Source: Endomicrobiia bacterium
GTDB lineage: Bacteria; Elusimicrobiota; Endomicrobiia; DTEH01
NCBI GenBank assembly: GCA_039630545.1
Contig: JBCNUU010000003.1
Coordinates: forward strand, 1 to 64,000
Direction of reading: 5' to 3'
Length of the DNA: 64,000 nucleotides
Position numbers and translations under genes: made by a program
Notes under the pieces: model-generated
What the model saw: the letters and a program-made list of their open reading frames with translations, nothing else
Databases searched by the model: none
Told to the model about the DNA's origin: nothing
In this document: positions 1 through 31,521 of the stretch, one piece after another
Numbering within the stretch: position 1 is the stretch's first letter
Layout of the letters: the number at the start of each line of letters is the position of its first letter

Positions 1-1585
1 TCATTATGAGTTCAAACTTTTCAAATATATTGAGTTTAAGTTCTTCTATTCCTTGCTCATTAGCGTTAGAATCAGTATTTTTAACCATATCTGTCTGCGA
101 TCTATTTTCATCTGAAAATAGCTTCGTTATCTTTTTTTCAACATTTATTGCTTCATCTATAATACGCTTAGCATTTTCATTCTGGTTAAGATATTCTTGA
201 TTAACAAAATGCTTCAAAACTATAGACAGAACGGAAGTATTGTTAGATAAATTTTTAAGTTTGTTAATTTTTAAGTACAACTTAGTAATACGATTTACTA
301 TCTTGTCGATTTCTTGATTGTATATGTTATTACTTTTATTTTTTCCTGCTTCATTTAATACCAGGTTCAATGTATTTTTAATATCTTGTTTTTTAAGGCG
401 AAATAAAGCAGTACATAACTTAAACCTGCTTAAAAAATAAGGTAACACAATTTCTTTGTATACTTCATTTTCAATCTTGAATTTTGAAAACTCCGAAGTG
501 AAGAGAATCTCAAAATCGCTTGTTGTAAAATATCCTCGTAAAAAGTTTGCCACAGCATTCAACGTCTGCCATAACAAATCTGCCTTAAAGTACAGCTCTT
601 TCCTTATTATGATTTTTTCGTCTTGAACAATATTATTATAAAGCCCAACCAGAAATTCTAAAGTGGATATAACCATATCATTGTCTGTTACAACACATAT
701 TTCAGTATTCCCCTGCTGACTGCAAAGTTCTCTTATTTTGCGGATTATCCATTGTATTTCATCAACTACCGTTATACCTGAAAAAAATTCTATTTTATTT
801 GTTTTTTTAATCTGTTTAATTAAGGAATAAATTTTCCTAAGATTTTTTTCGATAATATTAGAGTTATCATTGCTATTATGCGTGTATACAATAACACGTT
901 CAATAAAATTAACTTCTTTAAAGTTAGAACGGAAATGCTCTCGTATTTTCTTAACAAAACTGCCATACATTTGTGGTAAACAATTAAGGTTTTCACATAT
1001 ACAATGTGTGTAGTTTTCAAGATATTTTTCATAATCATCGAATTTATCTACAACTTCATGAAAACACTTTATACGGTCAACAGGCTGTTTTTCAAGATAA
1101 ATGTTAAGAACATCTTTAAAATCTTTATGATTCAGGTTCTCAATCTGGTAAGAAGCTTTCTCATTAAAATTATACTCAATATATTCATGCATAAGCCTTG
1201 CAATTTTTCTACCGGTAACATAGATTTTATTTCGTCTTCTATAATTGTCAAGCAAGCTGGAGATGCTGGATGTTTTCTGATCTTTATTCACTATATTGCT
1301 ATAAATGGAAATAATGTACATCTCCCACCAGTTCAACGGTAAATCTAAAATTTCACTAATACTAATATTTTCTTTATTTTCTTTATTTTCTTTGTTTTCT
1401 TTATTTCCGTACAACAGAATCACAAAATCTTCAATCTGTTTTATGTCAACTTTTTCCTTTTCATCTTCATTTAGTTTACTTCTTAATTGTTGAGCTCTAT
1501 AGCGCGAAGGAACAAGTACAAGAATTTTGCCGTTAGTTGTATTTCTTATAACTTCAACTGTATTAATACTTGTATTTTCGTCCAT
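1..1585 (-). CDS. Large protein, 3'-truncated by the window edge (>528 aa); RecC/AddB-like inactive-helicase N-terminal region
   Basis: Absent from the ORF track. Manual translation from ATG at 1585 (MDENTSINTVEV...) is stop-free to base 2. Segments KILVLVPSRYRAQQLRSKL and IEFFSGITVVDEIQWIIRKIREL...EICVVT resemble RecC/AddB motifs. The ORF is solid; the family call is tentative. Confidence 0.6.
   Translation of the reverse strand, partial: MDENTSINTVEVIRNTTNGKILVLVPSRYRAQQLRSKLNEDEKEKVDIKQIEDFVILLYGNKENKENKENKENISISEILDLPLNWWEMYIISIYSNIVNKDQKTSSISSLLDNYRRRNKIYVTGRKIARLMHEYIEYNFNEKASYQIENLNHKDFKDVLNIYLEKQPVDRIKCFHEVVDKFDDYEKYLENYTHCICENLNCLPQMYGSFVKKIREHFRSNFKEVNFIERVIVYTHNSNDNSNIIEKNLRKIYSLIKQIKKTNKIEFFSGITVVDEIQWIIRKIRELCSQQGNTEICVVTDNDMVISTLEFLVGLYNNIVQDEKIIIRKELYFKADLLWQTLNAVANFLRGYFTTSDFEILFTSEFSKFKIENEVYKEIVLPYFLSRFKLCTALFRLKKQDIKNTLNLVLNEAGKNKSNNIYNQEIDKIVNRITKLYLKINKLKNLSNNTSVLSIVLKHFVNQEYLNQNENAKRIIDEAINVEKKITKLFSDENRSQTDMVKNTDSNANEQGIEELKLNIFEKFELIM
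1367..1405. repeat. 9-bp tandem repeat (ATTTTCTTT x4, one variant unit) encoding NKE x4
   Basis: Read directly; in frame within the 1..1585 ORF. Confidence 0.85.
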
Positions 1586-1609
1586 GGTTGATATCTTATG
1601 GAAACCTTC

Positions 1610-2722
1610 TTACTGTTTAGTTAAAATGTTATTAAACAGATTCCCATCTATCTTTTTGATTTTCTCACAAAGTATTTTGCTGTTCTGTATCCTGTCCGCC
1701 ACCATTGTGTAAAGAGCTGGATTTAGGCGTTGAAGCACTTCCACTAATTTTTCTATATAATTGTCTTTGTTTCCATCGTTATTTTCTACCGCTGTGATCA
1801 CAAAATCAACAATTTCTTGAAGGACAGCTAGTTTTTCACTAATTTTCTGAACTATCTTCCCGGGATCCATATATATAATTTCTATAATCTCCCGGATACC
1901 AAAATAAGCTTTACAAAACTCATCAGCTATTCTTTTGCCAAGTATACTGCAAGACAAAATTGTTACCATATTTTCATCTACTTTACCATTTTGTTTTTTA
2001 CATTCTTCCTCTAACTTTATTAACATTTTTGAAAGTATCTCCCAGCCACGCGGTGTTGCGATCTGTTGTGCGTTTTCCTGCTGTAGTCCTTGGGTGTCAA
2101 GTAAGTGGTCAATACTATCTTTCTCTTCTAAAAACCTGATTATAGCTGGATGAATTTGATTGTTTTTAGCCCAGTCGAGCCATTGTTTCAAGCTAGGACT
2201 GAGCCTAACTTGCATAAACCTTGTCTTAACAGCTTTTGAAAGCTCTTCAACATAGGTCCCATCTTCCTTACCATAGTTTCCAGCCGCAACTATCATTGTA
2301 TCTTTAGGCAGTTCATATTCTTCTACTCGTTTGTTCAGTATTACATCAAGTGCTGAGTTTAACACCTGTGGTGATGCAGTGTTTATCTCATCAAAGAAAA
2401 AAAGTATACGTTTGCCGCTGGTTCTGCCTCTGAGGAACTGTGGCCGTACAAAGACAGTGTATTCCTCGTTGTTGTCAATTTTTGTTTTTGGAATTCCTAA
2501 CCAATCAGTAGGTTCTGTCCTTGAGAGAAATCTGATGCGTAAATCCATGTCTTTATCGTTAGCAAAAGTTGTCACTATCTGTGTCTTACCAATACCAGGG
2601 GGACCAAAAATAAGCAATGATGGCGGATTGTCCATGCTATAAAGTAGTTCTAAAACTTTTCTTAATGTCTCATAATCTACCTCTGGAATAGTATCCCACT
2701 TTTCTCCTAAAATCAGTGGCAT
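1610..2722 (-). CDS. MoxR-like / AAA_5 AAA+ ATPase
   Basis: Walker A GPPGIGKT, Walker B FFFDEIN, AAGN sensor, TRF arginine finger, TPRGW; GGAGG RBS. Confidence 0.9.
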   Translation of the reverse strand: MPLILGEKWDTIPEVDYETLRKVLELLYSMDNPPSLLIFGPPGIGKTQIVTTFANDKDMDLRIRFLSRTEPTDWLGIPKTKIDNNEEYTVFVRPQFLRGRTSGKRILFFFDEINTASPQVLNSALDVILNKRVEEYELPKDTMIVAAGNYGKEDGTYVEELSKAVKTRFMQVRLSPSLKQWLDWAKNNQIHPAIIRFLEEKDSIDHLLDTQGLQQENAQQIATPRGWEILSKMLIKLEEECKKQNGKVDENMVTILSCSILGKRIADEFCKAYFGIREIIEIIYMDPGKIVQKISEKLAVLQEIVDFVITAVENNDGNKDNYIEKLVEVLQRLNPALYTMVADRIQNSKILCEKIKKIDGNLFNNILTKQ

Positions 2723-2754
2723 TGTATTTTTACCCTCCTATTGTAAAAGTATTT

Positions 2755-4572
2755 TCATTCAGGATATACCTGTATTACCTCGCCACGAGGAACTTCAGGT
2801 TCTTTCATTTGCATCAAATAACTGCCACCAAGACGCAACCACAAAAGGCGACCTTCAAAAATACTGTATTTGTAATCTTTAAGAAAATCTAATTCCACAT
2901 CAAAATCTGTTATAAAAATAGTAAGATCAGGTATTCTTTTGCCAGGTTCTATTTTATACCATTCATTGAGTATCCGTGTAAACACATCTTTGTAGTCAGT
3001 GCCACCTCCGTGGCAAAATTCTTGATTCTTACGGAGTTCATCAATACTTTTAAATTTTCTAAACTCGCCTATCATTTTGTCATCCACTTCAGCTGCGTAG
3101 ATCTGTCCTTGAGACCTTCCTAAAAGATTGATTTTTGCAATTTCCATAAAGGTCACATATATGGTATTTACGATTTCACCTATAGTTCCGCGTTCGTAGT
3201 AGGAATGCATACTACCTGATACATCAAATACTATCAATACACTGCCTGGCTTTAATTTTCTTTTAACACCCGGAACCAAACCCGGCAGACGACGATTTAC
3301 CTTTTTCCATGTATATGTTACAAGATGAGAACTTATCATAGGTATGTAGCGTCTTAATTTATTTTTCCAGTCATAATACTTGTTCTGGTGGATAGACACA
3401 AGGAGTTTATCCAGTTTTGTTTGTCCACCACGACATCTGTTAAGTAAACTATCAATGAAACTGTTCGTAGCGGATTCTTGTGGTATTTGAGAAGTTTGAG
3501 TTTCTTCATCTCGTTGTGGTAACTCGTTTGTTTCAGTTCCTTCATATTCTTGTTGTTTTGTCTGTCCACTTTCATTACTAATGGAGCTTGAATCTAAATC
3601 GTGTTCCTGGTTGGCTTCCACTTCTGAGTCGCTACCATATTCCTGTGTTTCCTCCTTAGTAGCTTCCTGTGTACTTTTGTCCTGTTTATCACCACGAGTA
3701 GTTTGTCTATTTGAACCGTGTTGCTGTTCAGTTTCACCTTCTGATGTATCATCTTCTTCCTCTGAGTCACCACCACGTTTTCCTACTTCGTCCTTAGTAG
3801 CTTCCTGTGTGCCTCTCTGTTGTTTATCACCGTTAGAAGATTGTCTATTTGAGTCATATTGATGTTCAGTCTTACCTTTTAAGATATCACCTTTACCTTC
3901 TGCCCATATGTGATTATCAATCAATCTTGCAGACTGGATTATTTTTTCCTGTTCTTCTTGAGGCAACTCAAGCATTCTGTTGAGAATATAAATATCAGAA
4001 AAGTTTAACACATAATTTTGATTGTTATAATCTACGCTGAATTGTTGCCCATTTAATGTTTTCAGATTCTCTAAAGACAGTAATTCTTTCCAGTTACGCC
4101 AGGGGGCTACATCGTTGTCTGTATAAGCACTGATAAAGTTATCTATAATAATATCAGCAGCATAATTGTATAACTTATTTTCCATAGCTGTATTAAATCT
4201 ACGTCTGAAATGCTTAAGTACAATATGTAACATCTCGTGAAGCAAAATTTTAGCAAGGAAATGATAGCCAGTATCTTTATTTTCATTATTTTCATCAAAA
4301 TTCTTTCTATCCAGGAAATATGAAACCAGAGAGGGGTTAAGAAGTAATACTGGAATACCTGTTTTATGATTTATTGCCACGGCAGCTGTCGGAACATAGC
4401 TGTCTGAATGTTCACAATTTATAAAAAAATCGTATACTGATGGATATTCTCTCTTAAGAAATTTTAGAAAGTAACGGTCGTTTAAGATAAGGTCAAAAGC
4501 AGAGTTTCTACCTTCTCCTGTTTGGCTGTCCTCTATTTGCTTTATTCTCTGCAAATGTTCGTCTATGTTCAT
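2755..4572 (-). CDS. Metallopeptidase (HEXXH) + vWA domain protein (DUF2201-like)
   Basis: HEMLH...N.AAD..I zincin motif; acidic low-complexity linker; MIDAS DVSGS, GGGTD and FITD; adjacent to the AAA ATPase. Confidence 0.88.
   Translation of the reverse strand: MNIDEHLQRIKQIEDSQTGEGRNSAFDLILNDRYFLKFLKREYPSVYDFFINCEHSDSYVPTAAVAINHKTGIPVLLLNPSLVSYFLDRKNFDENNENKDTGYHFLAKILLHEMLHIVLKHFRRRFNTAMENKLYNYAADIIIDNFISAYTDNDVAPWRNWKELLSLENLKTLNGQQFSVDYNNQNYVLNFSDIYILNRMLELPQEEQEKIIQSARLIDNHIWAEGKGDILKGKTEHQYDSNRQSSNGDKQQRGTQEATKDEVGKRGGDSEEEDDTSEGETEQQHGSNRQTTRGDKQDKSTQEATKEETQEYGSDSEVEANQEHDLDSSSISNESGQTKQQEYEGTETNELPQRDEETQTSQIPQESATNSFIDSLLNRCRGGQTKLDKLLVSIHQNKYYDWKNKLRRYIPMISSHLVTYTWKKVNRRLPGLVPGVKRKLKPGSVLIVFDVSGSMHSYYERGTIGEIVNTIYVTFMEIAKINLLGRSQGQIYAAEVDDKMIGEFRKFKSIDELRKNQEFCHGGGTDYKDVFTRILNEWYKIEPGKRIPDLTIFITDFDVELDFLKDYKYSIFEGRLLWLRLGGSYLMQMKEPEVPRGEVIQVYPE
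3622..3878. repeat. Imperfect 138-bp (46-aa) tandem duplication in the peptidase-vWA linker
   Basis: TCCTTAGTAGCTTCCTGTGT occurs at 3653 and 3791. Peptide units are GKTEHQYDSNRQSSNGDKQQRGTQEATK and GETEQQHGSNRQTTRGDKQDKSTQEATK. Confidence 0.85.
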
Positions 4573-5837
4573 AAGTTTCGTCTTTGGTATAAATTACCAC
4601 ACCGTGACATAAATGTTTCTAACGCTACTTTAGTGTACGACTTCAGTAAAAACCAGCAAAAAACAAATTCTCTTGAACTAAACAAAGATTCATTATTATC
4701 TATATTTTGATTTTGTTGTAATCTTTCAATGGAAGTTTTGACTATATTGTTAAAGTTACCTCTGAATGTTTCATTTGAGTAGATCTTTCGTATCTCATCC
4801 ACAAATCTTTCCTCTATTATGTCTGGATGAACAGCATCCAGCCAGCCAGATATCATATTATAGCTTACTGTAATCACTGCAGGGCTAATATTGTTGTTGC
4901 TTAAACCTTCAAAAAATCTTTGAAGATGGTTAATATTCCCATTGTGCATCTGTTGAACAAAAACCGAAATTTCTTCATCTTCTTCACCTCTTTTAAGCTG
5001 CTGTACTACTTTTTCAACAATTTCATATAACTGTTGTTGAGTTAGTTTTCTTCTTAACAGACCGAGTACTCCGTCCAGGTAATATAACACTTCACGATTT
5101 CTTCCCAACGCAGTGTAAAGCCTGCAGTCAGTAAAAATTTGATAAAATTTTTCAATATCTTGCTGTCTATCTGACAAAAGCAGTAAATTAAAATATCCTC
5201 CTGAAAGTAGTGCTCTTCGTAAACGGTCAGGATGTAGTAAATTTTCTATGCTATCATAAAAAGATGAAACCTCATCCGCTGTCAGAGATATTTTACCTGA
5301 GGACAACATGTTTATCAAACGTTCAAATCTTTCTGCTTCAAAGAAGACACCGCCATCAAATTGATTCCACAAGTCATTTAGCCTTATTTCGCCTGAAGGT
5401 AGATTATAACTGTGTTCATTATGTTCTCTGGAATCAGTACGAAGATTCTCACTCCACAACCTACTGCAGCAAAATTCTTCCGCTATTTTATCATTTGCGT
5501 TGACTAAATCTCTCAAAGATTCAATTAATTGGTAGTAATACTGGTTCTTACCTGACGTTCTATCACTAAACATACCTATAGTTGAGCTAACAAGAATGTC
5601 AACAGCATCAATAAAATTTCTTATATCATACTGCCCACCAGTAAACCATCTGTAAACTCTTTCAAGCACAACAACATACCATAGAAACGCTGAAGTGAAA
5701 AACTCCTGTGGATGATTTAATATAACATCAGGAACTGGCATATTGTGGTCAACAATTGAATCTCTAAAATTTTCCCATCTCCGCCATAGGTTAGAAAATT
5801 GATTATAGTTATTCACATTCAAAGGTAGTTCTTTCAT
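4569..5837 (-). CDS. Hypothetical protein (422 aa, probably alpha-helical)
   Basis: Long ORF with ATGA overlaps to both neighbours; no recognised motif. Confidence 0.8.
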   Translation of the reverse strand: MKELPLNVNNYNQFSNLWRRWENFRDSIVDHNMPVPDVILNHPQEFFTSAFLWYVVVLERVYRWFTGGQYDIRNFIDAVDILVSSTIGMFSDRTSGKNQYYYQLIESLRDLVNANDKIAEEFCCSRLWSENLRTDSREHNEHSYNLPSGEIRLNDLWNQFDGGVFFEAERFERLINMLSSGKISLTADEVSSFYDSIENLLHPDRLRRALLSGGYFNLLLLSDRQQDIEKFYQIFTDCRLYTALGRNREVLYYLDGVLGLLRRKLTQQQLYEIVEKVVQQLKRGEEDEEISVFVQQMHNGNINHLQRFFEGLSNNNISPAVITVSYNMISGWLDAVHPDIIEERFVDEIRKIYSNETFRGNFNNIVKTSIERLQQNQNIDNNESLFSSREFVFCWFLLKSYTKVALETFMSRCGNLYQRRNL

Positions 5838-6510
5838 AAATTAAACTTATTGTTTTTCCATTTCTGATAATAAGCGCGTGAGGGATGTGAAATAATAACG
5901 ACTCTCGGATTTTGTAAATACAATACCTGATTTTGGTTAATCACCTTAATGTGTTTGAAATTCCCTATTTGACTAATCACAACTGCTTCCTCCACATCTA
6001 ATCCAGCTGCGATAATAGTTTTAGGTTTCAAATGGTCAATCTTTTTTACCAAAATATTTGATACAGAAACCTACCGCACTTTTAACAATTTTTTCATCAT
6101 TTTTCGCATAGCATTTAACAAGATGCGTCCAGTAAAAACCTGCTTACAGGATTTTGTCTGGTGTTTGCAAGATAAGTCATGAACTCTTTCCATAAATTAT
6201 TATCAACCAGAAAATCACAAAAAAAGTTACCTAAACACTGTCTTTTAGGTGGATTCCAAGAAAGCACTACTTTAGTTGCTGAATTGTGTTTTTGTATAAT
6301 CTCTTCACATTCTATGTTAGGGTCACGAGAAACAAACATATATTTCACTTGATTTTTGCTTTTCAAATGCAGTTTTTTTCTATAAAAACACAAAGAATAC
6401 TCAGAACCGACCAAGGAACAATTCCTGCATACTTCTAAAGTGTTTAAGTCAACCTTTACACCTTCTGACCGATTTGTTATCTCTTCAAGCTCTTTTAATA
6501 TTTTGTTCAT
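5834..6510 (-). pseudogene. Uracil-DNA glycosylase superfamily gene split by two +1 frameshifts
   Basis: Frame 1 CRNCSL...YMFVSRDP; frame 2 FYWTHLVKC...FCIKY; frame 3 IDHLKPKTIIAAG...ISHPS. The shifts lie in A runs at 6134-6138 and 6051-6054. Confidence 0.8.
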
Positions 6511-6535
6511 GTTTAACCTCTGTAGAGCTTAAATT

Positions 6536-7357
6536 TCACAACAACTCCTCCATAGATTTTACAACGATATCCAGATTACTTTCATAAGGAATAGCGACTA
6601 TGTATGCTGATTTTATACCAAACAGGCTGTTGTAGTGTTTAAACTCGTCAAGCTGTTGATTTATTTCTTCTTGCTTTTTATAGACAAAAATTTTTGCAAC
6701 TTCGCCTGTGTTAAACACAAAATCATAAGTATAATCTGCCACTTTTTGAGATTTATAAAGAACTGGGTAGCTTACAGAATAAAAATCTAAACCATTAAGT
6801 CTGAGTTCTACACCAATTGAGTTTATATAAATATCCATCGCATCTTTACCGGAATATAAAAATTCTAACCCAAGATAATCCAGCACTTCTTTTGTAGCAT
6901 ACTTCAACAGTTCTTCGGTTGAAACCTTGTCTCGTTTGGTTTCGGTCCGTGAGGTTTCTTTCTTTACTTCTCTGTCGGGCCTTTGTACCTCTTCAACTTC
7001 AGCAGTTTTCAACTTCTGGTTAAAATTCAGAACCACACCACTTTTTATATTCATTGAAGCAAGGTATATCTCCGCCTGTCTTAAATGGTGTTTTTCAATT
7101 TTTGAAACAGATTTCATTTCTACAAGAAATTCTTCCTTGCTGCCACTCCACAAAGGATAAAGAATACAATCAGGTCTGCGAAAACCTACAGAGAAGCCCT
7201 TATATATAATTTCTATATTTCTTTGTCTTTCATAAGGTATATTGCATAACCGCAATTCATGAGCAAAGGCTTCCTCATATGTAGTTTCTCTATAGTAAGG
7301 TCCTAATTCCTTCATTACTTCGTTACCGAGCCGTTTTATAGTTTCAATGTCTATCAT
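6536..7357 (-). CDS. GxxExxY (PD-(D/E)XK nuclease fold) protein with two tandem domains
   Basis: LGPYYRETTYEEAFAHEL...RPD...VEMK in the first domain; second degenerate copy LGLEF...YINSIGVEL...YDF. Start moved to ATG 7357, which follows AAGGAG. Confidence 0.85.
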   Translation of the reverse strand: MIDIETIKRLGNEVMKELGPYYRETTYEEAFAHELRLCNIPYERQRNIEIIYKGFSVGFRRPDCILYPLWSGSKEEFLVEMKSVSKIEKHHLRQAEIYLASMNIKSGVVLNFNQKLKTAEVEEVQRPDREVKKETSRTETKRDKVSTEELLKYATKEVLDYLGLEFLYSGKDAMDIYINSIGVELRLNGLDFYSVSYPVLYKSQKVADYTYDFVFNTGEVAKIFVYKKQEEINQQLDEFKHYNSLFGIKSAYIVAIPYESNLDIVVKSMEELL

Positions 7358-7740: not shown

Positions 7741-8316
7741 ATGGGGAGATATGTAGAAATAGTAATTAAACTCTGTAAAAATGAAATTGATGAAAAGTCA
7801 TTTAATTGTTTCCTTAAAGAAATAATAGCAATGTTTTGCAAATATGCAGAGATAAAAATCCTTGACAGCTATGCAGAAGCTTTATGTTGTAAAGCTTTAG
7901 ATACACTACTGTCAAAATTAGAAGAGTTTGCTTTAAAAGCCGAAAATGACACAAACTTTGATAGATGGTTTTTTATATGGCTTTCAAGAACTGTAAGAAA
8001 TTATGCATACAAGTACAAGAGAATAAAAAATCAAGAAGAAATACTGGAATCAGAACTATATAGATCTGATGCCGAAGATAATGCTGAAATAATATTTGTA
8101 GATAAAACTGATGATGTTTTTTCTAAAATTTCAAGTGAAGAATTTATACAAAAGTTTTATTCTTCACTTGATGAAACAGAAAAGCAAGTCGTCAAACTTA
8201 AGTTACAAGGGCTAAAGCAAAAAGAGATTGCAGAAAAAATCAACAAAAGTGAACCCACGGTGTGCAGAATAATAAAGTCAATAACTGAAAAGTTAAAAAA
8301 GCTACTTGAGAAATAA
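7741..8316 (+). CDS. ECF-type sigma-70 factor
   Basis: Region-2-like F..WL.R..RN and region-4 HTH (LQGLKQKEIAEKINKSEPTVCR). Confidence 0.75.
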   Translation: MGRYVEIVIKLCKNEIDEKSFNCFLKEIIAMFCKYAEIKILDSYAEALCCKALDTLLSKLEEFALKAENDTNFDRWFFIWLSRTVRNYAYKYKRIKNQEEILESELYRSDAEDNAEIIFVDKTDDVFSKISSEEFIQKFYSSLDETEKQVVKLKLQGLKQKEIAEKINKSEPTVCRIIKSITEKLKKLLEK

Positions 8317-8346
8317 AAAATTTATTTTGCAAAAAGGATTAAGTGA

Positions 8347-9084
8347 ATGAATAGAAATCAAAAAAGTGAAAAAAATAGTATTCACATTAACAATCTTCTT
8401 AAAATAATGTTTGATGAACATGACCTTAAAAAAACAAAAGATTGTCCTGAATTAGATGTTTTAATAGATTATTATCTGGATATATTACCACCTTATAAGA
8501 AAAATAAACTTACACAACATATCTCATCTTGTGATTACTGTAGAGAAGAAATTGAACTTATGAATGAAGATGAAAAATTTAAAAATTCTTTTACTGAACA
8601 GGAACTTGAGCAATATAACCAGATAGCACAGAAATTTACCATGGAAATACTACAAAGAAAAATAAAACACAAAATTAAAATATCCACAGGAAAAAATGTT
8701 ATTGAAGTGTTAAAAGAAAGCTTTTTATTTAAACCTATCTACGATATCAAATCTTTCATGAAATCTTTAAATAAAGCTTTACCAGCATTTGCTTTTATCT
8801 CCACCAAGCAGGAATACTTACTGCGCCAGACTGAAATTAAAGGGGTAAAGATGACATTAAAACTTACCTTAGATGAAAATCAAAACCTGCGTGTAGATCT
8901 TTTGTTTACAAAAGATCTTGTGCCAGTTGATGGTGTTGTAGTTACTATTAATAAAGAACAAAAGTTTCATTCACAGAACGGAGTGGTTACATTTACCCTG
9001 ACCCCGGCAAATGAGTATGATATTGAAATTTCTCTACCTGACAACACAAGTTTTGACTTTGTGCTGGATGTGGTTGAGCATTGA
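8347..9084 (+). CDS. Zinc-finger (zf-HC2) anti-sigma-like protein with C-terminal beta-rich domain
   Basis: CP...HISSCDYC (HxxxCxxC) motif; directly follows the ECF sigma; no obvious TM helix. Confidence 0.75.
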   Translation: MNRNQKSEKNSIHINNLLKIMFDEHDLKKTKDCPELDVLIDYYLDILPPYKKNKLTQHISSCDYCREEIELMNEDEKFKNSFTEQELEQYNQIAQKFTMEILQRKIKHKIKISTGKNVIEVLKESFLFKPIYDIKSFMKSLNKALPAFAFISTKQEYLLRQTEIKGVKMTLKLTLDENQNLRVDLLFTKDLVPVDGVVVTINKEQKFHSQNGVVTFTLTPANEYDIEISLPDNTSFDFVLDVVEH

Positions 9085-17983: not shown

Positions 17984-20707
17984 TTAATTTTTAAAAATAT
18001 ATTTATAAATTTCATCGTAAAGATTTATCAATTTTTCTATTTTCTGAGGTGATATTTTTACTTTATAAAATTTTGTTTGTAAAATCGATTTTTTGTTTTT
18101 AATTTTAGGATAGCCACTTTTGCCAGTGGAAGATAAATCTTCTAATTTCCTTATATTTGCATCATGAATTAAAGATAAAAATAAAAAAAATGACTCTTTT
18201 AAATTTTTATTTTTTCTTCTTAATACAATAAAATCTTTAGAAAACAAAAATTTTGTTGCCGATTTAGTAACTACAGCAATTTTTTTCTGATATATTCTAA
18301 CTGGAGCAATGATTATATCCCCCTCTTTCAGAGTTCCAAACTTACCTGAGGCTATTTTTCTTTTTATTCTTTCAATATTAGAGGCAGTTGTATGAATTAA
18401 ATTTTTAGGTGTAATTATTCCAGCTCCACCAGGAACTATGTCTCCTGTTTCACATATTAGTAAACTCAAATTGTTTATATCAATACCATTTATTCTTTCT
18501 ACCTCAACAATTTCCCATTCTTGACTAATAGTTAATGCTTTCGATGAACTTATTTTACGATTATCAACCTCTGAAAATGTTGGAGTTAAGATAAATTTCC
18601 TTTTTGTATAGATCTCTTCCAATGTTTTAATTGTGATTCCTAAACACTCTCGATACTTGCCATCAAAAGCACTGGAAATTATCTCTGCTAATTCATCAGT
18701 TAAGTCGTTCTTCTTTATTTGTATAGTGTTTACTGTCTTTTTCTTTTTCGTTCTTACATATCCAATATTTTTGGCATCATAAAAAATTATCTTTTCATTT
18801 TTAATAATGTCTATAAACTCATCTATTTTGTTAATTTTGTAAAATAATTGATTACTCTCTTCTAAAGATCTCCTTTCAGCAAAAACTAATAATGTTCTTT
18901 GTTGAGCATGAGGTGCAAAAGCATGTTCTGGTAATCCTATAATAGCTATTATTTTAAAATAAGATAAGAAGAGTAATTTTGCCTTAAAGTATTCATTGCT
19001 ATCAAAAATTGAAAATGGTAAAACGGCCCCTAATTTCCCTTTTGGATTTAAAAGTTGATACCATCTTTCTGCGAAAATACATTCGGAGGCATTAGTAATA
19101 CCTCTCTTAAAGCTTAAAAATTCTTTCATTCTAAAGTTGCTATATCCATCTTGTCTTATTTCAAGACTAAATGGGGGATTGGTGATAATGAAATCTACAC
19201 CATGATTTTCTTTTATACTTTCAGGTGTACATTCTCCGTTTCTAAGAATATAAGTTTCTTTTATAAAAGGAAGCGGAAGACTATCTAAAGGTAAAAGAGC
19301 ATCCCTTGTGTATATGTTAGCTGAACCATCCCCATGGATAACCATATTTACTTTACATAAAGATGTGGCTCGTTGCTCGTTATCTATACCAAAAATGATT
19401 TTTAGAGCATTTTCTTTTATATCTTCAATCTGATAATCTTTAAAAATTAATCGTAAAGCTTCAATTAAGAATGTTCCAGAGCCACATGAGGGGTCTAGAA
19501 TATATTTATAATTTTTCTTTTTAATTTCCTCTCCTAATTTCTGAATGTTTAGAGCTTTGCAAACAAACCTACAAATATTTGGATGAGTGAAAAATAAAGC
19601 TCTGCTTTGTCTAAAAATTGAATGCATAAAATCCAAAAATACATCACCTACTGAGTCTTCTCCTACAAATCTCAAACTTCTGAGTTTCATTCTTTGGAGA
19701 TATAGGACAACATCTAATAAGATTTTTTCTTTATCTTCATGATCTATAAGTTCTTTATCTCTGGCTTCTTTAGGGTCTTCACCTAAAAGCTGAATCAAAG
19801 CGTTTTCAAGTAAAGATTTAATTCTATTATAGAAAGCTGTTTTATTTAGATAATCTTCCGGTCTTACTTGAAAACAAGGTTCTTCATTCCCTTTTTTTAA
19901 GAGTTCAATTTCGTCAAAAGTTTTTGCTAAAAGTAAATTAATAATTGTTTCAAAAGCTTTTTCCTCTACAATACCATAATTTCTTAGTCCTTGATGTAAT
20001 TTTTCTTTTAACATATTTTTAAATTCATTTGGATTTTTAATATCTATTAAATCATTCTTTGTCAGTGGCATTTTGTGGAAATAAACTTTATTATCTGAAA
20101 CTTTTGGAGGAATTTTATAAGCAAACGATGAATTTTTTGAAATTATCTCCTCTAATGAAATCTGTCCAGTTTCTATAGTTTTTTCTATTTCAGGATAAGA
20201 AAACCACCTGTAAAAAATATCGATTTTTTCGCTATTATTTAAAGATATTTCATACATAATTAAGGTTAATGGATATGGTTGTTTTGTATTTTTTGCATAG
20301 GAGTGAGCTATATTATAGAGTTGTCTTATAAAATAGTTGGTAAATTCTTTATCAGAAATTTTGTAAATAGATGTTTTACATTCTACTAAAGCTATACACG
20401 ATCTTTCATTATAATTATCAGCGGTTTCTATTTTAATATCTACTCTTTTTGATGGAGAACCAACAAGAGACGTTTCTTCTAAACAAATCAGGTTAGGAGG
20501 AACTTTTTGCTCTGTGACCAAATGAAGAATTGCTCTAGCTCTGCCTAATTCACCTAATACGTTTTGGTTGCAAGAAGAAATATTGCGATAATACTGATTT
20601 TTCAAAAAATAAGACAATCTATTATTTTCTATTTTTACAACTTTATTATTTAGATGTGAAATTTCTTTAATCAATAAATTCTTAAATTTTTCAATATTTT
20701 TATTCAT
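17984..20707 (-). CDS. Fused restriction-modification protein (putative nuclease + N6-adenine MTase + specificity-like tail), Type IIG-like
   Basis: MTase motif I LDPSCGSGTF and motif IV NPPF; N-terminal RVDI...LVECK (PD-(D/E)XK-like); C-terminal L..GDII and STG..GYPKI (TRD-like). Confidence 0.8.
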   Translation of the reverse strand: MNKNIEKFKNLLIKEISHLNNKVVKIENNRLSYFLKNQYYRNISSCNQNVLGELGRARAILHLVTEQKVPPNLICLEETSLVGSPSKRVDIKIETADNYNERSCIALVECKTSIYKISDKEFTNYFIRQLYNIAHSYAKNTKQPYPLTLIMYEISLNNSEKIDIFYRWFSYPEIEKTIETGQISLEEIISKNSSFAYKIPPKVSDNKVYFHKMPLTKNDLIDIKNPNEFKNMLKEKLHQGLRNYGIVEEKAFETIINLLLAKTFDEIELLKKGNEEPCFQVRPEDYLNKTAFYNRIKSLLENALIQLLGEDPKEARDKELIDHEDKEKILLDVVLYLQRMKLRSLRFVGEDSVGDVFLDFMHSIFRQSRALFFTHPNICRFVCKALNIQKLGEEIKKKNYKYILDPSCGSGTFLIEALRLIFKDYQIEDIKENALKIIFGIDNEQRATSLCKVNMVIHGDGSANIYTRDALLPLDSLPLPFIKETYILRNGECTPESIKENHGVDFIITNPPFSLEIRQDGYSNFRMKEFLSFKRGITNASECIFAERWYQLLNPKGKLGAVLPFSIFDSNEYFKAKLLFLSYFKIIAIIGLPEHAFAPHAQQRTLLVFAERRSLEESNQLFYKINKIDEFIDIIKNEKIIFYDAKNIGYVRTKKKKTVNTIQIKKNDLTDELAEIISSAFDGKYRECLGITIKTLEEIYTKRKFILTPTFSEVDNRKISSSKALTISQEWEIVEVERINGIDINNLSLLICETGDIVPGGAGIITPKNLIHTTASNIERIKRKIASGKFGTLKEGDIIIAPVRIYQKKIAVVTKSATKFLFSKDFIVLRRKNKNLKESFFLFLSLIHDANIRKLEDLSSTGKSGYPKIKNKKSILQTKFYKVKISPQKIEKLINLYDEIYKYIFKN

Positions 20708-25554: not shown

Positions 25555-26769
25555 TTAAAGATGATTAAAAATTTTTGTTGTTCTTTCTAAACCACCTTTA
25601 AGGTATGCTATAGCTATGCCATAGTTTGTAATTGGAACATTTTGTGCTTTGGCTTTATAAACTCTTGAAAGTATTTCTTTTCTGTTCATCATACAACCAC
25701 CACATTGAATTATCAGTTTATATTCTTTTAAGTTATCAGGAAAATCCTTACCTGAATAAACATCTACCAATATTTCTTTTTTTGTTCTTTCTTTTATCCA
25801 GCGTGGTATTTTGTGTCTTCCTATGTCATCTCCAATAGGGTGGTGCGTACAGGATTCTGCTATTAGAATTTTGTCGTTATCTTGAAGTTTATCAATAGTG
25901 TAAACACTTTCTATAAACTCTTTTATATCTCCCTTATTAGCTGCAAAAAGTATTGAAAAACTCGTAAGGTAAACATCCTCAGGAACTGTTTTTAAAACTT
26001 CTTCAAATGCTTGTGAATCTGTAATTACTATTTTTGGTTTTACTTTCAAAGTATCTATAGCTATTTTAAGATTCTTTTCATTTGTAACTAGTGCGTTAGC
26101 ATTTAGGTCTAAAATTTCTCTTAAAACTTGTTGTTGGGGTAAAATTATTCGCCCCTTTGGAGCTTCTTTATCTATAGGTATTACTAAAATAGCAAAGTCC
26201 TCTTTTTTTAATATGCCATTTGGGATAAGAGGTGGCGGTGTGATAAAATCTTGTGGCAGTATTTCAATAAGTTTTGATTTTACTATAGAGGTTGTCTCAA
26301 AATTTTTTGTCTTGCTAGATACTTCTACATAAGGAATTTTTCTTTTTTCCAGATCTTCTTTTATATTTTTATCTGGCTTTAATATGTCTGTTTTGTTTAG
26401 TACGACTAAAACTGGCGTGTTGTGATGTTGTGCTTTGGAAATGACAAAATCTTCGTATTCTGTCCATTTGTTGGCTTCTGTCACAAGAATCACAAGATCT
26501 GCTCTTTCAAAGACTTTTAGTGTTTTTTCTATTCTTAAGTTGCCAATTGTGCTTATATCATCAAGTCCTGCTGTGTCAATAAACAAAACAGGTCCTATAG
26601 GCAAAAGTTCCATTGGTTTTTCTACTGGATCTGTGGTTGTGCCAGGAAGATCGGAAACTATTGAAACTTCCTGTTGAGTAAGACAGTTAAGAAAAGAAGA
26701 TTTTCCAACATTTGTTCTTCCAAAAATTGCTATGTGTAATCTTAAACCTTTTGGAGTTGCAAGTTGCAT
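25555..26769 (-). CDS. hydF: [FeFe] hydrogenase maturation GTPase
   Basis: GRTNVGKSS, GTTTDPV, DTAG, APKGR.ILPQ, CTHH, CGGCM. Confidence 0.97.
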   Translation of the reverse strand: MQLATPKGLRLHIAIFGRTNVGKSSFLNCLTQQEVSIVSDLPGTTTDPVEKPMELLPIGPVLFIDTAGLDDISTIGNLRIEKTLKVFERADLVILVTEANKWTEYEDFVISKAQHHNTPVLVVLNKTDILKPDKNIKEDLEKRKIPYVEVSSKTKNFETTSIVKSKLIEILPQDFITPPPLIPNGILKKEDFAILVIPIDKEAPKGRIILPQQQVLREILDLNANALVTNEKNLKIAIDTLKVKPKIVITDSQAFEEVLKTVPEDVYLTSFSILFAANKGDIKEFIESVYTIDKLQDNDKILIAESCTHHPIGDDIGRHKIPRWIKERTKKEILVDVYSGKDFPDNLKEYKLIIQCGGCMMNRKEILSRVYKAKAQNVPITNYGIAIAYLKGGLERTTKIFNHL

Positions 26770-27776
26770 TTTTTGTTTAAAGAATCCCCTCTTTCAAATT
26801 TTAAAGTTTTACCTATCTTTTTTACTCTGTTTTCTAAACACTTAAAACATTCAAAACCGTTTTCGTAAATACATATTTTGTTTGGATAAAGTAAGTAGTA
26901 TTTTCTTACTTCTGTTGGAGTAATTATTGGCATTAAAACATTTGCTCCTGCTTGAAGGGCTTTTTCTCTACCAAAGGGGTCAACAGTCCCCATTGCAGTG
27001 GTTGCTGGAATGTTAGAATAAGGTAGCATAATTCTAAGTATGGCAACTGCACGAAGTGTCTTTTCAAAAGGTGCTAACTTTGCTTCAGCTAAGGGTGTAT
27101 CTGGGTGAGGAATAAATGGACCTATCCCTACCATATCTAAATTTAGTTCTTTACAAAGTAGTAAGTTTTTTACTGCAACTTCGTCTGTTTCGTTAGGTAA
27201 TCCTACCATAAAGCCAGAACCAACTTCAAATCCTATATCTCTTAAGTTATGAAGCATCTCTATTCTTTTTGATAACGGTTCGCCATTTTTAAGAAAGCTA
27301 TATAGATCTTCGTCTGCAGTCTCAAATCTTAAAAGGTATCTGTCTGCTCCAGAGTTTCTTATGTCTATTAGTTCTTTTTTTGTAAAATAACCACAACTTA
27401 AAGTAACAGCTACTTCTGAATCTAATTTTTTAATTTTTTCTACTAACCTACAGATTCTTGTAGCTGAGCTATAGAAAGAAGATTCTCCACTTTGTAACAC
27501 TATTGTTTTAACTCCGTAATCAATTGCTTGTTTTGCTGTTTTGAGTATCAACTCATCATCTAAAGAATACCTTTTGATTTTTTTGTTTGATGCTCTGATT
27601 CCACAATATAAACAGTTGTTCTCGCAATAGTTTGAAAATTCTATTATTGCTCTTATCCATATTTTGTTTGAAAAAATTTTTTCAGTGATAAAATTCGATT
27701 CTTTTGAAAGTTCTTCAAGCGACACATTTTTATAAAGATATTCTATTTTTTCAAAAGTAAATATCTCTTTCTCCAT
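26742..27776 (-). CDS. hydE: [FeFe] hydrogenase maturation radical SAM protein
   Basis: CENNCLYC, YLLRFET, GIGPFIPHPDTP, PATTA, Y.LYPNK. Confidence 0.95.
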   Translation of the reverse strand: MEKEIFTFEKIEYLYKNVSLEELSKESNFITEKIFSNKIWIRAIIEFSNYCENNCLYCGIRASNKKIKRYSLDDELILKTAKQAIDYGVKTIVLQSGESSFYSSATRICRLVEKIKKLDSEVAVTLSCGYFTKKELIDIRNSGADRYLLRFETADEDLYSFLKNGEPLSKRIEMLHNLRDIGFEVGSGFMVGLPNETDEVAVKNLLLCKELNLDMVGIGPFIPHPDTPLAEAKLAPFEKTLRAVAILRIMLPYSNIPATTAMGTVDPFGREKALQAGANVLMPIITPTEVRKYYLLYPNKICIYENGFECFKCLENRVKKIGKTLKFERGDSLNKKCNLQLQKV

Positions 27777-29190
27777 TTTTTATTCTATTATAAAACTCAA
27801 CTAAATGCGGGAACCACTTTGGCAGTTTTTGTTCAACTTCTTTTAGTTCTTTTTCAATTATAGGTTCTACTTCTTTTTTAACTTCTTCTGTTGCAAAGTC
27901 ATCAATCCACTCTCTAAAAGTTAAAATAGCATTTAATTTACAAAAAACAGCTTCTTTACCACATTTTATTAAATTCATTATCCTGTCACCAGTCCTACCA
28001 CATCTGTAGCCTGCGGTACAAAACGAAGTAATAAATCCCATTTTTGCAAGGTCTAAAATTAACTCTTGCAGTGTTCTTGTATCTCCAAGAATAAACTGTT
28101 GGAGATTAGGTTGTTGCCGTTGTTGGGATTGACTGTATGATCCTACTCCAATTTTGGATGATGCATCTGTTTGTGTGATACCTAATTTAAAAACCTCATC
28201 CCTAAATTCCTTTGACTCTCTCGCAGTTATTATCATGCCTGTGTAAGGGATAGCTAAACGAATTATTGTTATTATTTTTTTTAATTCTTCATCTTTTACT
28301 TTATATGGTGTTTTTTCAACAAATGGAGTGTTAATTGCTGGTTCTAATCTCGGGAAAGATACAGTATGTGGCCCAATTCCATATTTTTCTTCAAGCTCTC
28401 TAGCGTGATACACCAAGGCTAAAACTTCAAATCTCCAATCATAAAGTCCATAAAGTACTCCTATACCAACATCTTCTATTCCTGCTTCTAAAGCTCTATG
28501 CATACAGTAGAGTCTCCATTCATAGTTACTCTTTGGAGTATTTTTAGGATGGAGTCGTTTGTAGACTTCTGGGTGATAAGTTTCTTGAAATACCTGGTAT
28601 GTCCCTATACCAGCTTGTTTAAGTAATTTTAATTCCTCAACACTTAAAGGCGCACAGTTTACATTGACTCTTCTTATAGAAGCAAAACTACCTGATTTGG
28701 TTTTGATTTTTACTGAGTAGATAGTTTGAATTGCTCTTGTTATATAGTCAACATTTGAGTAGTCTGGATGTTCTCCAAAAACAGCAATGACTCTTTTGTG
28801 TCCAATATTGCCAGAAAGTACCTCTACTTCTTTTTTTATTTCTTCAAAATTTAAATGTTTTCTTATTACCTCTTTATTAGACTTTCTAAATCCACAATAT
28901 ACACAGTTATTTATACAGTAGTTAGTTAAGTAAAGAGGTGCAAATACTACAATTCTGTTATCGTATACTTTTTTTTTAATTTCTAAAGCCACTTTAAAAA
29001 GTTCTTGCCATATGTCTTTATCTTCTATTTTTATTAAGCAAGCTACTTCTTGCGGAGTAAGAGTTTGAATTGATTTTGATTTTTCTATTATCTCAGTAAT
29101 CTGAGTTATAGATGGAGTTTTTGTTTTATTTATTATTTGCCAGATCTCCTGTGGATTTATAAATATTCTTTTTTCTAATAATGTGTTCAT
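27751..29190 (-). CDS. hydG: [FeFe] hydrogenase maturation radical SAM protein
   Basis: FAPLY..NYCINNCVYC, FQETYH, GPHTVSFPR, SFCTAGYR. Confidence 0.96.
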   Translation of the reverse strand: MNTLLEKRIFINPQEIWQIINKTKTPSITQITEIIEKSKSIQTLTPQEVACLIKIEDKDIWQELFKVALEIKKKVYDNRIVVFAPLYLTNYCINNCVYCGFRKSNKEVIRKHLNFEEIKKEVEVLSGNIGHKRVIAVFGEHPDYSNVDYITRAIQTIYSVKIKTKSGSFASIRRVNVNCAPLSVEELKLLKQAGIGTYQVFQETYHPEVYKRLHPKNTPKSNYEWRLYCMHRALEAGIEDVGIGVLYGLYDWRFEVLALVYHARELEEKYGIGPHTVSFPRLEPAINTPFVEKTPYKVKDEELKKIITIIRLAIPYTGMIITARESKEFRDEVFKLGITQTDASSKIGVGSYSQSQQRQQPNLQQFILGDTRTLQELILDLAKMGFITSFCTAGYRCGRTGDRIMNLIKCGKEAVFCKLNAILTFREWIDDFATEEVKKEVEPIIEKELKEVEQKLPKWFPHLVEFYNRIKNGERDIYF

Positions 29191-29699
29191 TTTTGCTCCT
29201 TATATTTTCTTTTAAACTCTTTTATTACTTGAATAACACTTTGAGGGGTTAAGTTTCCGTAGACTTTATTATCTATCATTATTACTGGCGCAAGACTGCA
29301 AGCTCCAAGACATCTCGCTTCCTCTAAACTAAAAAATCCATCAGGACTTACATCTCCAATATCTGTATTTAATTCTTCTTTAAGTTTTCTTAAAATTTCT
29401 TCTGCACCTTTTATATAACAAGCCGTACCTAAACATACAGAAATTATATGTTTTCCTGGTTTTTTAAGCTTAAAGTAATGATAAAAAGTTGCTACTCCCC
29501 ATATATGAGAAGTAGGTACAGAAATAGTGGTAGCTACCTCCTCTATAGCGGTTTTATCTAAATATCCATAAATTTCCTGGATTTTGTGGAGAATAGTGAT
29601 TAAGTTTGACTCAGCCCTTGGTACATCTTTGAAATTTTTTAAGAACTCTCTTAGAGATTTTAAATTTAAATCGTCATTTTGTAGATTTTCTTTTTGCAT
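29187..29699 (-). CDS. NuoE-like [2Fe-2S] subunit of the hydrogenase complex (HydC/HndA)
   Basis: VATFY, VCLGTAC, RCLGAC.LAP. Confidence 0.93.
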   Translation of the reverse strand: MQKENLQNDDLNLKSLREFLKNFKDVPRAESNLITILHKIQEIYGYLDKTAIEEVATTISVPTSHIWGVATFYHYFKLKKPGKHIISVCLGTACYIKGAEEILRKLKEELNTDIGDVSPDGFFSLEEARCLGACSLAPVIMIDNKVYGNLTPQSVIQVIKEFKRKYKEQK

Positions 29700-29721
29700 T
29701 TTAAACCCCCTTGTTATATTC

Positions 29722-31497
29722 TTATCTTAAAGTCATCTCCTTTGGAATTATGCCTTTTGGATACTTCTGTTGATAGTGAGTATGCAGGATTTTATGAGCT
29801 TTTTCACTTAAAGGTTCTCCTAAAAATTCTTTATATACTCTTTTTACAACTGGATTTTCATGAGCTCGCCTTATGGTTTTTTTTCTGTCAATTCCATATA
29901 GAGCTTCTGCTCTTTTCATAAGAATATCTTCGTCAAGTGGTATGGAGTTTATACCAGCATAGGGTTGCCCACCTCCTCCTATACAACCACCCGGACAACC
30001 CATAATTTCTATAAAATGATATTTCTCTGGGTGCTTTTTTATTAACTCCAAAATTTTGGAAGCATTACCCAACCCATGTACAACAGCAACATTAATTCTC
30101 ATATCCCCAAAATCAACGCTGCCTTCTTTTATTCCTTTCATTCCTCTTATACTATTTATTTCTATGTTCAAAAGAGTCTCACCTGTATAAAGTTCATAAG
30201 CAGTCCTTATAGCTGACTCCATCACACCACCTGTTGCACCAAATATAGCTCCACCACCGCTTGAAATTCCAAGAGGATCGTCAAACTCTTCTGGTTCTAT
30301 ATTGAAAAAATCAATTCCTGCTGATTTTATCATCCAAGCAAGTTCTCTTGTAGTTATTACTATATCAACTGCCCTCATCCCTTCCAGCATAAGCTCTGGT
30401 CTTGCTGCTTCATATTTTTTAGCTGTACAACACATAACTGCTACACTTAATATCTTTTTTGGATCAACATTTATTTTCTGTGCAAAATATGTTTTGATTA
30501 AAGAACCTAACATAGACATTGGTGACTTACATGTGGAAACATTAGGAATAAGCTCAGGGTAAAACTGTTCCATAAACTTCATCCAAGCAGCTGAGCAAGA
30601 TGTTATCATAGGAAGTTTTCCATTGTTTTTTAATCTGTACAAAAGCTCACTTGCTTCTTCCATAATTGTAAAGTCAGCTCCAAGCTGTGTATCAAAAACA
30701 TAATCAAAACCTAACTTTCTTAAAGCAGCAACTGTTTCTTTTTCTTTTGGAGTTCCTGCTGGAAAACCAAACGCTTCACCAATTGCTGCTCTAACCGACG
30801 GAGCAAACTGTACAACTTTAACTAAGTTAGGATCCCTTAACTTCTCAAAAAGTTCTTGTGTGTTATTCTTTTCTAAAAATGCTGCTGTAGGGCAAACATT
30901 TACGCACTGCCCACATGCACTGCAGACACTTTCTGCCATGGGCATATCAAAAGCAGTTGTGACTACTGTTTTAAATCCTCGATATGCATAAGTTAAATTA
31001 AAAACTCCTTGTATCTCCGAACAGACCCTTACACATCTTCCACATAATATACATTTTTCTGGGTCTCTTATTACAGAAACAAAAGAAACATCTTTCTCAT
31101 AGCGCTTTCTTTCTCCAACAAAATGGCGATTTTTTATTCCCATAGAGTAGGTTAGTCTCTGTAGTTCACAAGTCCCGTTTCTGTCGCATGTATGACAATC
31201 CATGGGATGGTTGTCTACTATTAGTTCCACTATGTCTCTTCTTGCCCTTCTTAAATCAGCTGAGTTGGTATATATCTTCATTCCGTCGTAGACAGGATAA
31301 GCACAACTTGCTACATAGTTTTTTTGCCCTTCAACTTCTACTATGCAAACCCTGCAGGCTCCTTCTATAGACAATTTTGGATGAAAGCACAACCTTGGTA
31401 TGTGGTATCCAATTTTGTCAAGAGCCTGCATTATTGTTTGGTTGTCTTCTACTTGATAAGGTTTGTTATCAACATATATAGTTATTGTCTTTCCCAT
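29722..31497 (-). CDS. hydA: [FeFe] hydrogenase catalytic subunit, NADH-dependent group A3 type
   Basis: N-terminal 2Fe-2S, His-ligated and 2x4Fe-4S motifs; H-cluster motifs TSCSAAW, MCCTAKKYE, EIMGCPGGCIGGGGQP. Confidence 0.95.
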   Translation of the reverse strand: MGKTITIYVDNKPYQVEDNQTIMQALDKIGYHIPRLCFHPKLSIEGACRVCIVEVEGQKNYVASCAYPVYDGMKIYTNSADLRRARRDIVELIVDNHPMDCHTCDRNGTCELQRLTYSMGIKNRHFVGERKRYEKDVSFVSVIRDPEKCILCGRCVRVCSEIQGVFNLTYAYRGFKTVVTTAFDMPMAESVCSACGQCVNVCPTAAFLEKNNTQELFEKLRDPNLVKVVQFAPSVRAAIGEAFGFPAGTPKEKETVAALRKLGFDYVFDTQLGADFTIMEEASELLYRLKNNGKLPMITSCSAAWMKFMEQFYPELIPNVSTCKSPMSMLGSLIKTYFAQKINVDPKKILSVAVMCCTAKKYEAARPELMLEGMRAVDIVITTRELAWMIKSAGIDFFNIEPEEFDDPLGISSGGGAIFGATGGVMESAIRTAYELYTGETLLNIEINSIRGMKGIKEGSVDFGDMRINVAVVHGLGNASKILELIKKHPEKYHFIEIMGCPGGCIGGGGQPYAGINSIPLDEDILMKRAEALYGIDRKKTIRRAHENPVVKRVYKEFLGEPLSEKAHKILHTHYQQKYPKGIIPKEMTLR

Positions 31498-31521
31498 ACA
31501 ATTCTCCTTTCTTTAAGCCTG

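Follow-up and report, generated by a model that had tools for sequence, protein, structure and literature searches.

Rearranged version of a rare cassette of five genes joining a MoxR ATPase, a peptidase-vWA protein, and an AddAB-like pair in an Endomicrobiia bacterium

What kind of system is encoded by the group of genes that ends abruptly at the left edge of a contig from an Endomicrobiia bacterium? The stretch of DNA analyzed (the window) comprises the first 64,000 nucleotides of contig JBCNUU010000003.1 of assembly GCA_039630545.1; window base 1 is base 1 of that contig, designated C23, and the genome is designated G000. A preliminary description, made from the letters of the window, had proposed that positions 1 to 7357 hold an undescribed conflict or defense operon in which a MoxR-type AAA+ ATPase and a peptidase carrying a von Willebrand factor A (vWA) domain serve a RecC/AddB-like protein, accompanied by GxxExxY, uracil-DNA glycosylase (UDG)-like, and orphan proteins. 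Comparison with related loci indicates that these genes form a rearranged version of a five-gene cassette that is rare and comes from uncultured bacteria.

RESULTS

Synteny of the cassette

The MoxR subfamily was sampled as 30 locus entries (L numbers) from genomes and metagenomes, which form 21 clusters at 90% MoxR identity and span Elusimicrobiota and Goldbacteria. Wherever at least 250 bp is available, the peptidase-vWA gene is directly upstream of MoxR (25 of 25 loci). Directly downstream of MoxR is an AddB-like gene in 27 of 27 loci (at least 300 bp), and an AddA-like gene follows the AddB-like gene in 18 of 18 (at least 5 kb). A further open reading frame (ORF), ORF5, encoding 360 to 400 amino acids, comes last in 16 of the 17 loci that extend 7 kb or more (11 of 12 clusters; the L037 copy scores only 20 bits). 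The sole exception is genome G006, the closest relative of the window genome, in which an orphan gene lies upstream instead. No Add or ORF5 genes were found in 59 plus 11 generic MoxR control loci, many of which are short. The profiles used were partly trained on the tallied loci; eight loci outside the AddB training set scored 115 to 854 bits for AddB. The cassette consists of peptidase-vWA, MoxR, AddB-like, AddA-like, and helical ORF5 genes in fixed order and is syntenic across two phyla. The conserved gene order suspected earlier is real, but the conserved unit has five genes rather than the six first listed. AddA-like genes are split in the assemblies of L040 (5894 to 8883) and L115 (1906 to 5054). 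MoxR hits in G009, G160, and G280 were dropped as generic, having scores of 116 to 155 bits and no Add genes.

In the window, six minus-strand units share one orientation and are separated by 25, −4, −4, 32, and 24 bp (Table 1), with ATGA overlaps at 5834 to 5837 and 4569 to 4572 as described. The claim of six co-oriented genes holds for the units, except that the UDG-like unit (6510 to 5834) is not an ORF. Leftward extension of the contig, which had been recommended, found no overlap with any other contig, and neither the C terminus of the truncated left gene nor an AddA-like partner was found in the 95%-complete assembly. The prediction of a RecB/AddA-like partner past the edge is nonetheless borne out by all 18 relatives that are long enough, the window's own copy being unassembled.

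Table 1. Features at the left end of the window
Feature	Positions	Strand	Basis
AddB-like protein, N-terminal 528 amino acids, inactive-helicase half, cut by contig end	2..1585	-	fold look-alikes, hhalign
MoxR-type AAA+ ATPase, 370 amino acids, cassette-specific subfamily related to phage ATPases	1610..2722	-	motifs, PHROG 1297
HExxH metallopeptidase, acidic linker, vWA (MIDAS), DUF2201 type, 605 amino acids	2755..4572	-	PF13203
All-helical orphan, 422 amino acids, probable relocated ORF5 homologue	4569..5837	-	hhalign, G006 orthologue
UDG-superfamily (family-4-like) pseudogene, two frameshifts, passenger	5834..6510	-	three-frame tblastn
Tandem GxxExxY (PD-(D/E)XK) protein, 273 amino acids, candidate replacement nuclease	6536..7357	-	PF13366, TIGR04256
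Divergent intergenic region with A/T-rich block conserved in L013 and L043	7358..7740	.	alignment
ECF sigma factor (7741..8316) and zinc-finger anti-sigma-like gene (8347..9084)	7741..9084	+	TIGR02937

MoxR ATPase and peptidase-vWA protein

The identities first assigned to the two core proteins were upheld by motifs and Pfam models. The window MoxR protein carries GPPGIGKT at residue 40 (Walker A), FFDE at 109 (Walker B), AGN at 147, KTRF at 166, and TPRG at 223, which are Walker and sensor motifs of AAA+ proteins; the AAA+ motifs are invariant in the subfamily alignment. The protein matches AAA_3/AAA_5 (Pfam) and PHROG 1297 (E value of 8.9e-56), and its score of 22.5 bits with the bpMoxR model is below the cutoff of 27. 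The subfamily comprises 62 clusters set off by a score gap (194 versus 140 bits) and forms its own clade in the tree (support, 94/98). Inside it, the proteins of G000 and G006 group with two Logan proteins (100/99) as sister to the canonical group. Members named in their sources belong to Endomicrobia/Elusimicrobiota, Goldbacteria, and WOR-3.

The peptidase-vWA protein has HEMLH at residue 112 and DVSGS, the metal ion-dependent adhesion site (MIDAS), at residue 450, and it scores 27 bits with PF13203 (cutoff, 23.2). Across the family the HExxH histidines are invariant (16 of 16) and the glutamate is present in 15 of 16 proteins, being absent from the L025 copy (411 to 1961); the MIDAS D-x-S-x-S is invariant. 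The acidic linker between the domains differs widely in length, and in the window protein (approximately residues 225 to 365) it is ∼100 residues longer than in G006, with an apparent internal duplication.

AddB-like and AddA-like proteins

The RecC/AddB-like assignment of the left ORF agrees with an AddB-N/UvrD-like fold (ESM Atlas; best matches with template modeling scores of 0.53 to 0.61). The window protein is ∼52% identical to its G006 orthologue, which has 914 amino acids and a degenerate nuclease domain, and the family of this variant aligns with the canonical cassette AddB-like family (hhalign probability of 97.2%; E value of 3.8e-11). The concern that the left ORF might be the housekeeping AddB was dispelled by a separate addA-addB pair in G000 (C23:212941 to 218868). 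Housekeeping AddA is present in 39 of 41 genomes, including the cassette carriers G000, G006, and G035; G079, G220, and G401 likewise carry a second long gene of the UvrD family, and G145 carries a partial one.

Canonical AddB-like proteins retain D-R-x-D, YK, Q-x3-Y, and four iron-sulfur (Fe-S) cysteines without exception and lack Walker A (11 of 11 in each case). The cassette AddA-like proteins carry the superfamily 1 (SF1) helicase motifs ASAGTGKT and DEAQD in 11 of 11 cases and a RecB-type nuclease tail of 232 to 258 amino acids in 10 of 11. The G006 AddA-like protein ends 8 residues past motif VI with no remnant behind, and by inspection the D/E-x-K and Q-x3-Y motifs are gone from the G006 AddB-like protein, which has no PDDEXK_1 match. 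G006 thus keeps the Add motor and the structural cysteines, under purifying selection, and has lost both nuclease sites; judged from this one complete copy, both sites are lost in the window's variant.

ORF5 and the window orphan

Neither ORF5 nor the window orphan matches Pfam or NCBIfam. The ORF5 model (predicted local distance difference test [pLDDT] score of 79.6) is almost entirely helical, with no P-loop alpha/beta core and no propeller. Fold searches for ORF5 and the orphan with Foldseek returned no match in PDB or BFVD at an E value of ≤0.001; the best VIA-align matches (Z of 7.2, with a root mean square deviation [rmsd] of 5.2 over 105 aligned residues, and Z of 8.0, with an rmsd of 3.7 over 129) were generic helical repeats, and a PriL match was weak only (E value of 0.079).

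A model of the complex between the L014 peptidase-vWA protein and ORF5 scored 0.61, versus 0.04 for the best control; 116 of 157 solved pairs but just 2 of 215 mismatched pairs reach the mark applied, counts that are only roughly valid for this task. Contact agreement among runs was at least 52%, and partner pLDDT was at least 78. The modeled interface sets the peptidase loop after HExxH (residues 114 to 124), together with residues 65 to 70, 165 to 170, and 186 to 197, against the N-terminal helices of ORF5, and the model supports docking of ORF5 beside the HExxH site.

The orphan, 46% identical to its G006 orthologue, is probably a relocated ORF5 that now precedes the peptidase gene, because it replaces ORF5 in gene content, overlaps the start of the gene for the predicted partner of ORF5, and resembles ORF5 in profile comparisons. 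Alignment of the two families by hhalign gave a score of 30.2 over 316 collinear columns, reached by none of 60 block shuffles (maximum, 25.8); the hhalign probability of just 9.5% counts against homology. With the ORF5 hidden Markov model (HMM), the G006 orphan scored 12 bits, reached by 0 of 497 scored shuffles, and the window orphan scored 1.6 bits, reached by 26 of 437 and alone not significant. Pairwise comparisons gave z values of >3.3 in 3 of 20 cases, all involving the G006 copy. The orphan was not among the top 6 of 4425 window-genome ORFs scored with the ORF5 HMM, and a homologue search with a combined orphan and ORF5 profile found nothing new except two ORF5-type proteins. The alignment behind the orphan model included ORF5 rows, and that model is not independent evidence for homology. 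Generic plasmid MoxR-DUF2201 operons often have a gene of 300 to 330 codons between the pair (L163, 10063 to 10989; L164, 3941 to 4933), with no detectable relation to ORF5.

GxxExxY protein and UDG pseudogene

The gene first read as two GxxExxY units has two PF13366 stretches (92.6 bits) and one TIGR04256 stretch (80 bits; cutoff, 35). The doubling is real in this sense, but only the first copy has the nuclease motifs (PD at residue 62, EMK at 80, and QAEIY at 94); the second is degenerate, and the literal GxxExxY pattern is unmatched. The tandem gene occurs in 2 of 401 phylum genomes, both times beside the window's variant, and although it had been counted as an operon member it is not core to the cassette. 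In G006 it heads the cluster, 655 bp from the orphan. This one complete example suggests that the GxxExxY protein supplies the nuclease in trans in the window's variant.

The UDG-like stretch spans three frames (131, ∼32, and 72 amino acids) that jointly match an intact 266-amino-acid G006 homologue, P0125, in tblastn; P0125 matches PF03167 (E value of 1.4e-11). The first frameshift is reproducible, because the truncated 131-amino-acid product is recorded on three contigs from two sources, NCBI and Logan; the basis of the second is the assembly alone. The proposed role of the UDG-like protein as a sensor of modified bases is rejected: the gene is broken in the window and missing from the cassette in 29 of 29 other locus entries. 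A UDG-like gene lies ∼8 kb away in G006 and is also present in G003, which has no cassette. On its reading frames and distribution, the window copy is a twice-frameshifted passenger.

Distribution, selection, and flanking genes

The cassette is present in 3 of 41 relatives, in 6 of 401 phylum genomes (four candidates scored per genome; two generic hits dropped), and in 2 of 99 genomes of the second phylum. G+C content at third codon positions places the five intact window genes at the 98th to 100th percentile of 704 long ORFs, which fits horizontal acquisition. Compared with G006, these genes have pN values of 0.20 to 0.34 and pS values of 0.67 to 0.75 (saturated), from which they are judged to be under purifying selection. 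No subfamily member was found in IMG/VR, and the L014 AddB-like protein had no plasmid match; generic relatives of the ATPase occur on 724 phage and 141 plasmid records, and phages and plasmids commonly carry relatives of the ATPase/peptidase pair.

Seven loci have defense-type neighbors: AbiE (L014), type III-B CRISPR (L020), AbiD (L034), Mokosh-like (L025), NERD-helicase (L041), NsnB/NsnC-like (L036), and LeoA-like (L031). At L020 (8165 to 10947), L039, and L040, a type III-B CRISPR locus with a CARF gene, Cas6, and Cas10/Cmr2 abuts the cassette, no gap separating the two. Among the flanking proteins scanned, a part of those present, no integrase or virion gene was recognized.

Comparison with known systems

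AddAB and RecBCD combine an AddA-type SF1 motor bearing a C-terminal RecB-type nuclease with, in AddB, an inactive helicase, a nuclease, and four Fe-S cysteines. The cassette pair shares the SF1 motor/RecB-type nuclease of AddA and the inactive helicase, nuclease, and cysteines of AddB, but it is a second, patchily distributed AddAB paralogue far from the housekeeping pair; housekeeping AddA is ∼20% identical to the G006 cassette copy. The RecD of RecBCD has no counterpart: in 17 long loci, the genes from MoxR to ORF5 include no third helicase. PADLOC 2.0 matched no system; its hits were confined to generic ATPases, GajB-like helicases, and weak matches of the Cas4 type. The UvrD-family helicase accounts for the GajB hits (50 to 63 bits), which reflect generic helicase motifs, and neither GajA nor another partner matched any cassette protein.

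In the MoxR-vWA ternary conflict systems described by Kaur, Burroughs, Iyer, and Aravind (2020; PMC7159879), the vWA protein captures a peptide and MoxR remodels it. The cassette resembles them in combining MoxR, a MIDAS-bearing vWA protein, and a further conserved protein, in patchy distribution, and in proposed client remodeling. The third protein of the cassette, however, is a new helical family rather than iSTAND, FtsH, or a beta-propeller, and the peptidase-vWA protein contains no propeller. The cassette vWA domain is fused to an N-terminal peptidase with (in most copies) intact HExxH, where the ternary systems have variable effectors, and an AddAB-like pair, encoded separately, is a constant part of the operon; the terms AddA, RecB, and UvrD are absent from the main text of PMC7159879. 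The cassette is organized like a MoxR-vWA ternary system, and its third component differs from that of three of the four subtypes. For the fourth subtype, whose third component is a VMAP, ORF5 and the orphan gave neither a Pfam or NCBIfam match nor any fold match beyond generic helical ones. A MoxR and metallopeptidase-vWA pair of jumbo phage group 2.2 has been proposed to aid virion assembly (PMC7824862). The two-gene core and domain architecture of such phage pairs (PHROG 1297/1314, DUF2201) are the same, but the cassette version is cellular, has its own clade, and is coupled to AddB-AddA-ORF5, genes missing from the 70 generic loci.

The earlier impression that the combination belongs to no named system agrees with PADLOC and with the literature consulted, including passages of PMC10910872, PMC12839542, and 10.64898/2026.10.19.760177, in which no description of the five-gene cassette was found; neighborhood tables in supplements (PMC7159879 or similar) could list it. 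The five-gene system is real, rare, and limited to poorly cultured phyla, with no description found.

DISCUSSION

Free DNA ends are the loading sites of AddAB, and phages counter enzymes of this kind by capping the ends or by mimicking DNA. Against this background, we consider it an even call that the cassette is a horizontally moved accessory system directed against foreign DNA, an end-destroying machine that needs both the ATPase and a protease gated by ORF5. The AddAB paralogue would, as AddAB does, load on free double-stranded ends, unwind, and cut. The MoxR ring might pull through the vWA MIDAS site and so assemble or unlock the machine; alternatively, it might strip capping or inhibiting proteins, e.g., phage end-protecting or DNA-mimic proteins, and the ORF5-gated peptidase would cleave such blocking proteins. 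Canonical copies have intact SF1 motifs and all four Fe-S cysteines, and their two intact RecB-family nuclease sites would suit direct destruction of DNA. In the window's variant, judged from G006, the Add pair would be a motor devoid of nucleases, with cutting possibly done in trans by the GxxExxY protein. A narrower version is possible but tentative: a new class of anti-phage systems in which a dedicated AddAB paralogue is linked to a MoxR-driven, ORF5-gated metalloprotease that removes the protein caps and DNA mimics with which phages evade RecBCD/AddAB, with the window lineage using a nuclease-dead motor or decoy and a separate GxxExxY nuclease.

Several considerations weigh against a defensive end-destroying machine. 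The defense role is inferred from the known action of AddAB and MoxR-vWA proteins, and because phages and plasmids carry the closest relatives of the MoxR/peptidase pair, the module need not be defensive. Nuclease loss is known from the single genome G006; for the window itself, the assembly includes neither AddA nor the end of AddB; and the complex was modeled on L014 proteins rather than those of the window. The PADLOC matches among neighbors are single proteins, some of them generic kinases or helicases, and the counts of defense neighbors are raw tallies rather than enrichments over a genome background. Housekeeping-type neighbors, named from sequence, occur at L027 (ftsH/hpt-like), L028, and L022 (riboflavin/uvrB-like), and an M16 peptidase identified by Pfam is a neighbor among these loci.

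Retrons guard RecBCD, and the Add pair could itself be a guard or decoy that senses free ends or phage anti-RecBCD/AddAB proteins, whereupon MoxR would free the peptidase from ORF5 and the peptidase or GxxExxY protein would kill or arrest the cell. The selectively maintained, nuclease-less G006 pair, the modeled position of ORF5 next to the peptidase active site, and the fast divergence of AddB-like N termini (21 to 41% identity between most pairs) would all be expected of such a sensor. Canonical copies, however, retain both nucleases, the L025 peptidase lacks the HExxH glutamate, and the model cannot separate an inhibitor from a substrate or adaptor; we regard this alternative as unlikely.

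Removal of proteins from DNA ends by Wss1/SPRTN-Cdc48 offers an analogy for a host function, in which the peptidase and AAA+ protein would clear end-bound protein from blocked double-strand breaks and the second AddAB would resect them. The cassette has the parts that such an accessory repair pathway would require, some of the loci are surrounded by housekeeping genes, and a UDG-like gene is in or near the variant cassette. This reading appears quite unlikely given that the cassette is in <2% of sampled phylum genomes although housekeeping AddAB is already present, that its codon usage is foreign, and that sequence searches did not connect the peptidase with SprT-like structures. Least probable is that the cassette serves a mobile element (in recombination, or in counterdefense through a MoxR/peptidase pair of the phage type) or is a decaying island in the window genome, readings to which the phage and plasmid ATPase relatives, the broken UDG gene, and the split AddA genes of L040 and L115 would point but against which stand the IMG/VR and plasmid searches, the flanking genes scanned, and the purifying selection on five genes.

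Phages, plasmids, and chromosomes commonly carry a MoxR gene paired with one for a DUF2201 peptidase-vWA protein, and no paper was found that gives such pairs a tested client. In the cassette, a compact 11-kb unit, the candidate clients are fixed: one is an AddAB paralogue, and the other is a new helical protein with a modeled interface. The window variant is a natural test of GxxExxY proteins as plug-in nucleases. If the cassette is defensive, bacteria have repurposed a duplicate DNA repair resection machine under AAA+/protease control; the anti-phage version, if true, would give a first function to the very common DUF2201 and GxxExxY families.

Neighboring genes and other observations

Upstream of the GxxExxY gene, a divergent pair of genes encodes an extracytoplasmic function (ECF) sigma factor, which scores above the TIGR02937 cutoff, and a zinc-finger anti-sigma-like protein, whose gene is found in 2 of 41 genomes (G000 and G006); within this genus the pair co-occurs with the cassette. 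Such pairs occur in three loci, the window (7741 to 9084), L013 (3360 to 4677), and L043 (6493 to 7805), and that of L043 adjoins a canonical cassette; the pair may regulate the cassette or mark an island. An A/T-rich block with a short inverted repeat recurs in all three (window, ∼7670 to 7620; L013, ∼4750 to 4800; L043, ∼7900 to 7960) and is a possible operator or promoter. A sigma-70-like site (11 of 12 positions) lies on the minus strand at 7541 to 7512, such sites being no more common in the region than in shuffles, and promoter and terminator counts were likewise not above those of shuffles. Beyond the sigma pair in G006 and L043 is an operon of a second MoxR protein (∼528 amino acids, bpMoxR-like) and two unknown proteins; its coordinates are 1 to 2327 in L013, 1963 to 4200 in L120, and 1547 to 5784 in L043, and similar starts occur in L016 and L168.

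Downstream of the cassette, a zinc-ribbon/DnaJ-CXXCXGXG protein is encoded in two different phyla (L013, 15724 to 18039; L019, 12895 to 14103), and Ser/Thr kinases are encoded in L013, L025, and L044. Elsewhere in the window, positions 17984 to 20707 encode a 907-amino-acid N6-methyltransferase/Eco57I-like protein, probably a fused restriction-modification enzyme, and positions 25555 to 33663 hold an [FeFe]-hydrogenase cluster with HydF, the catalytic subunit, and a NuoF-like subunit.

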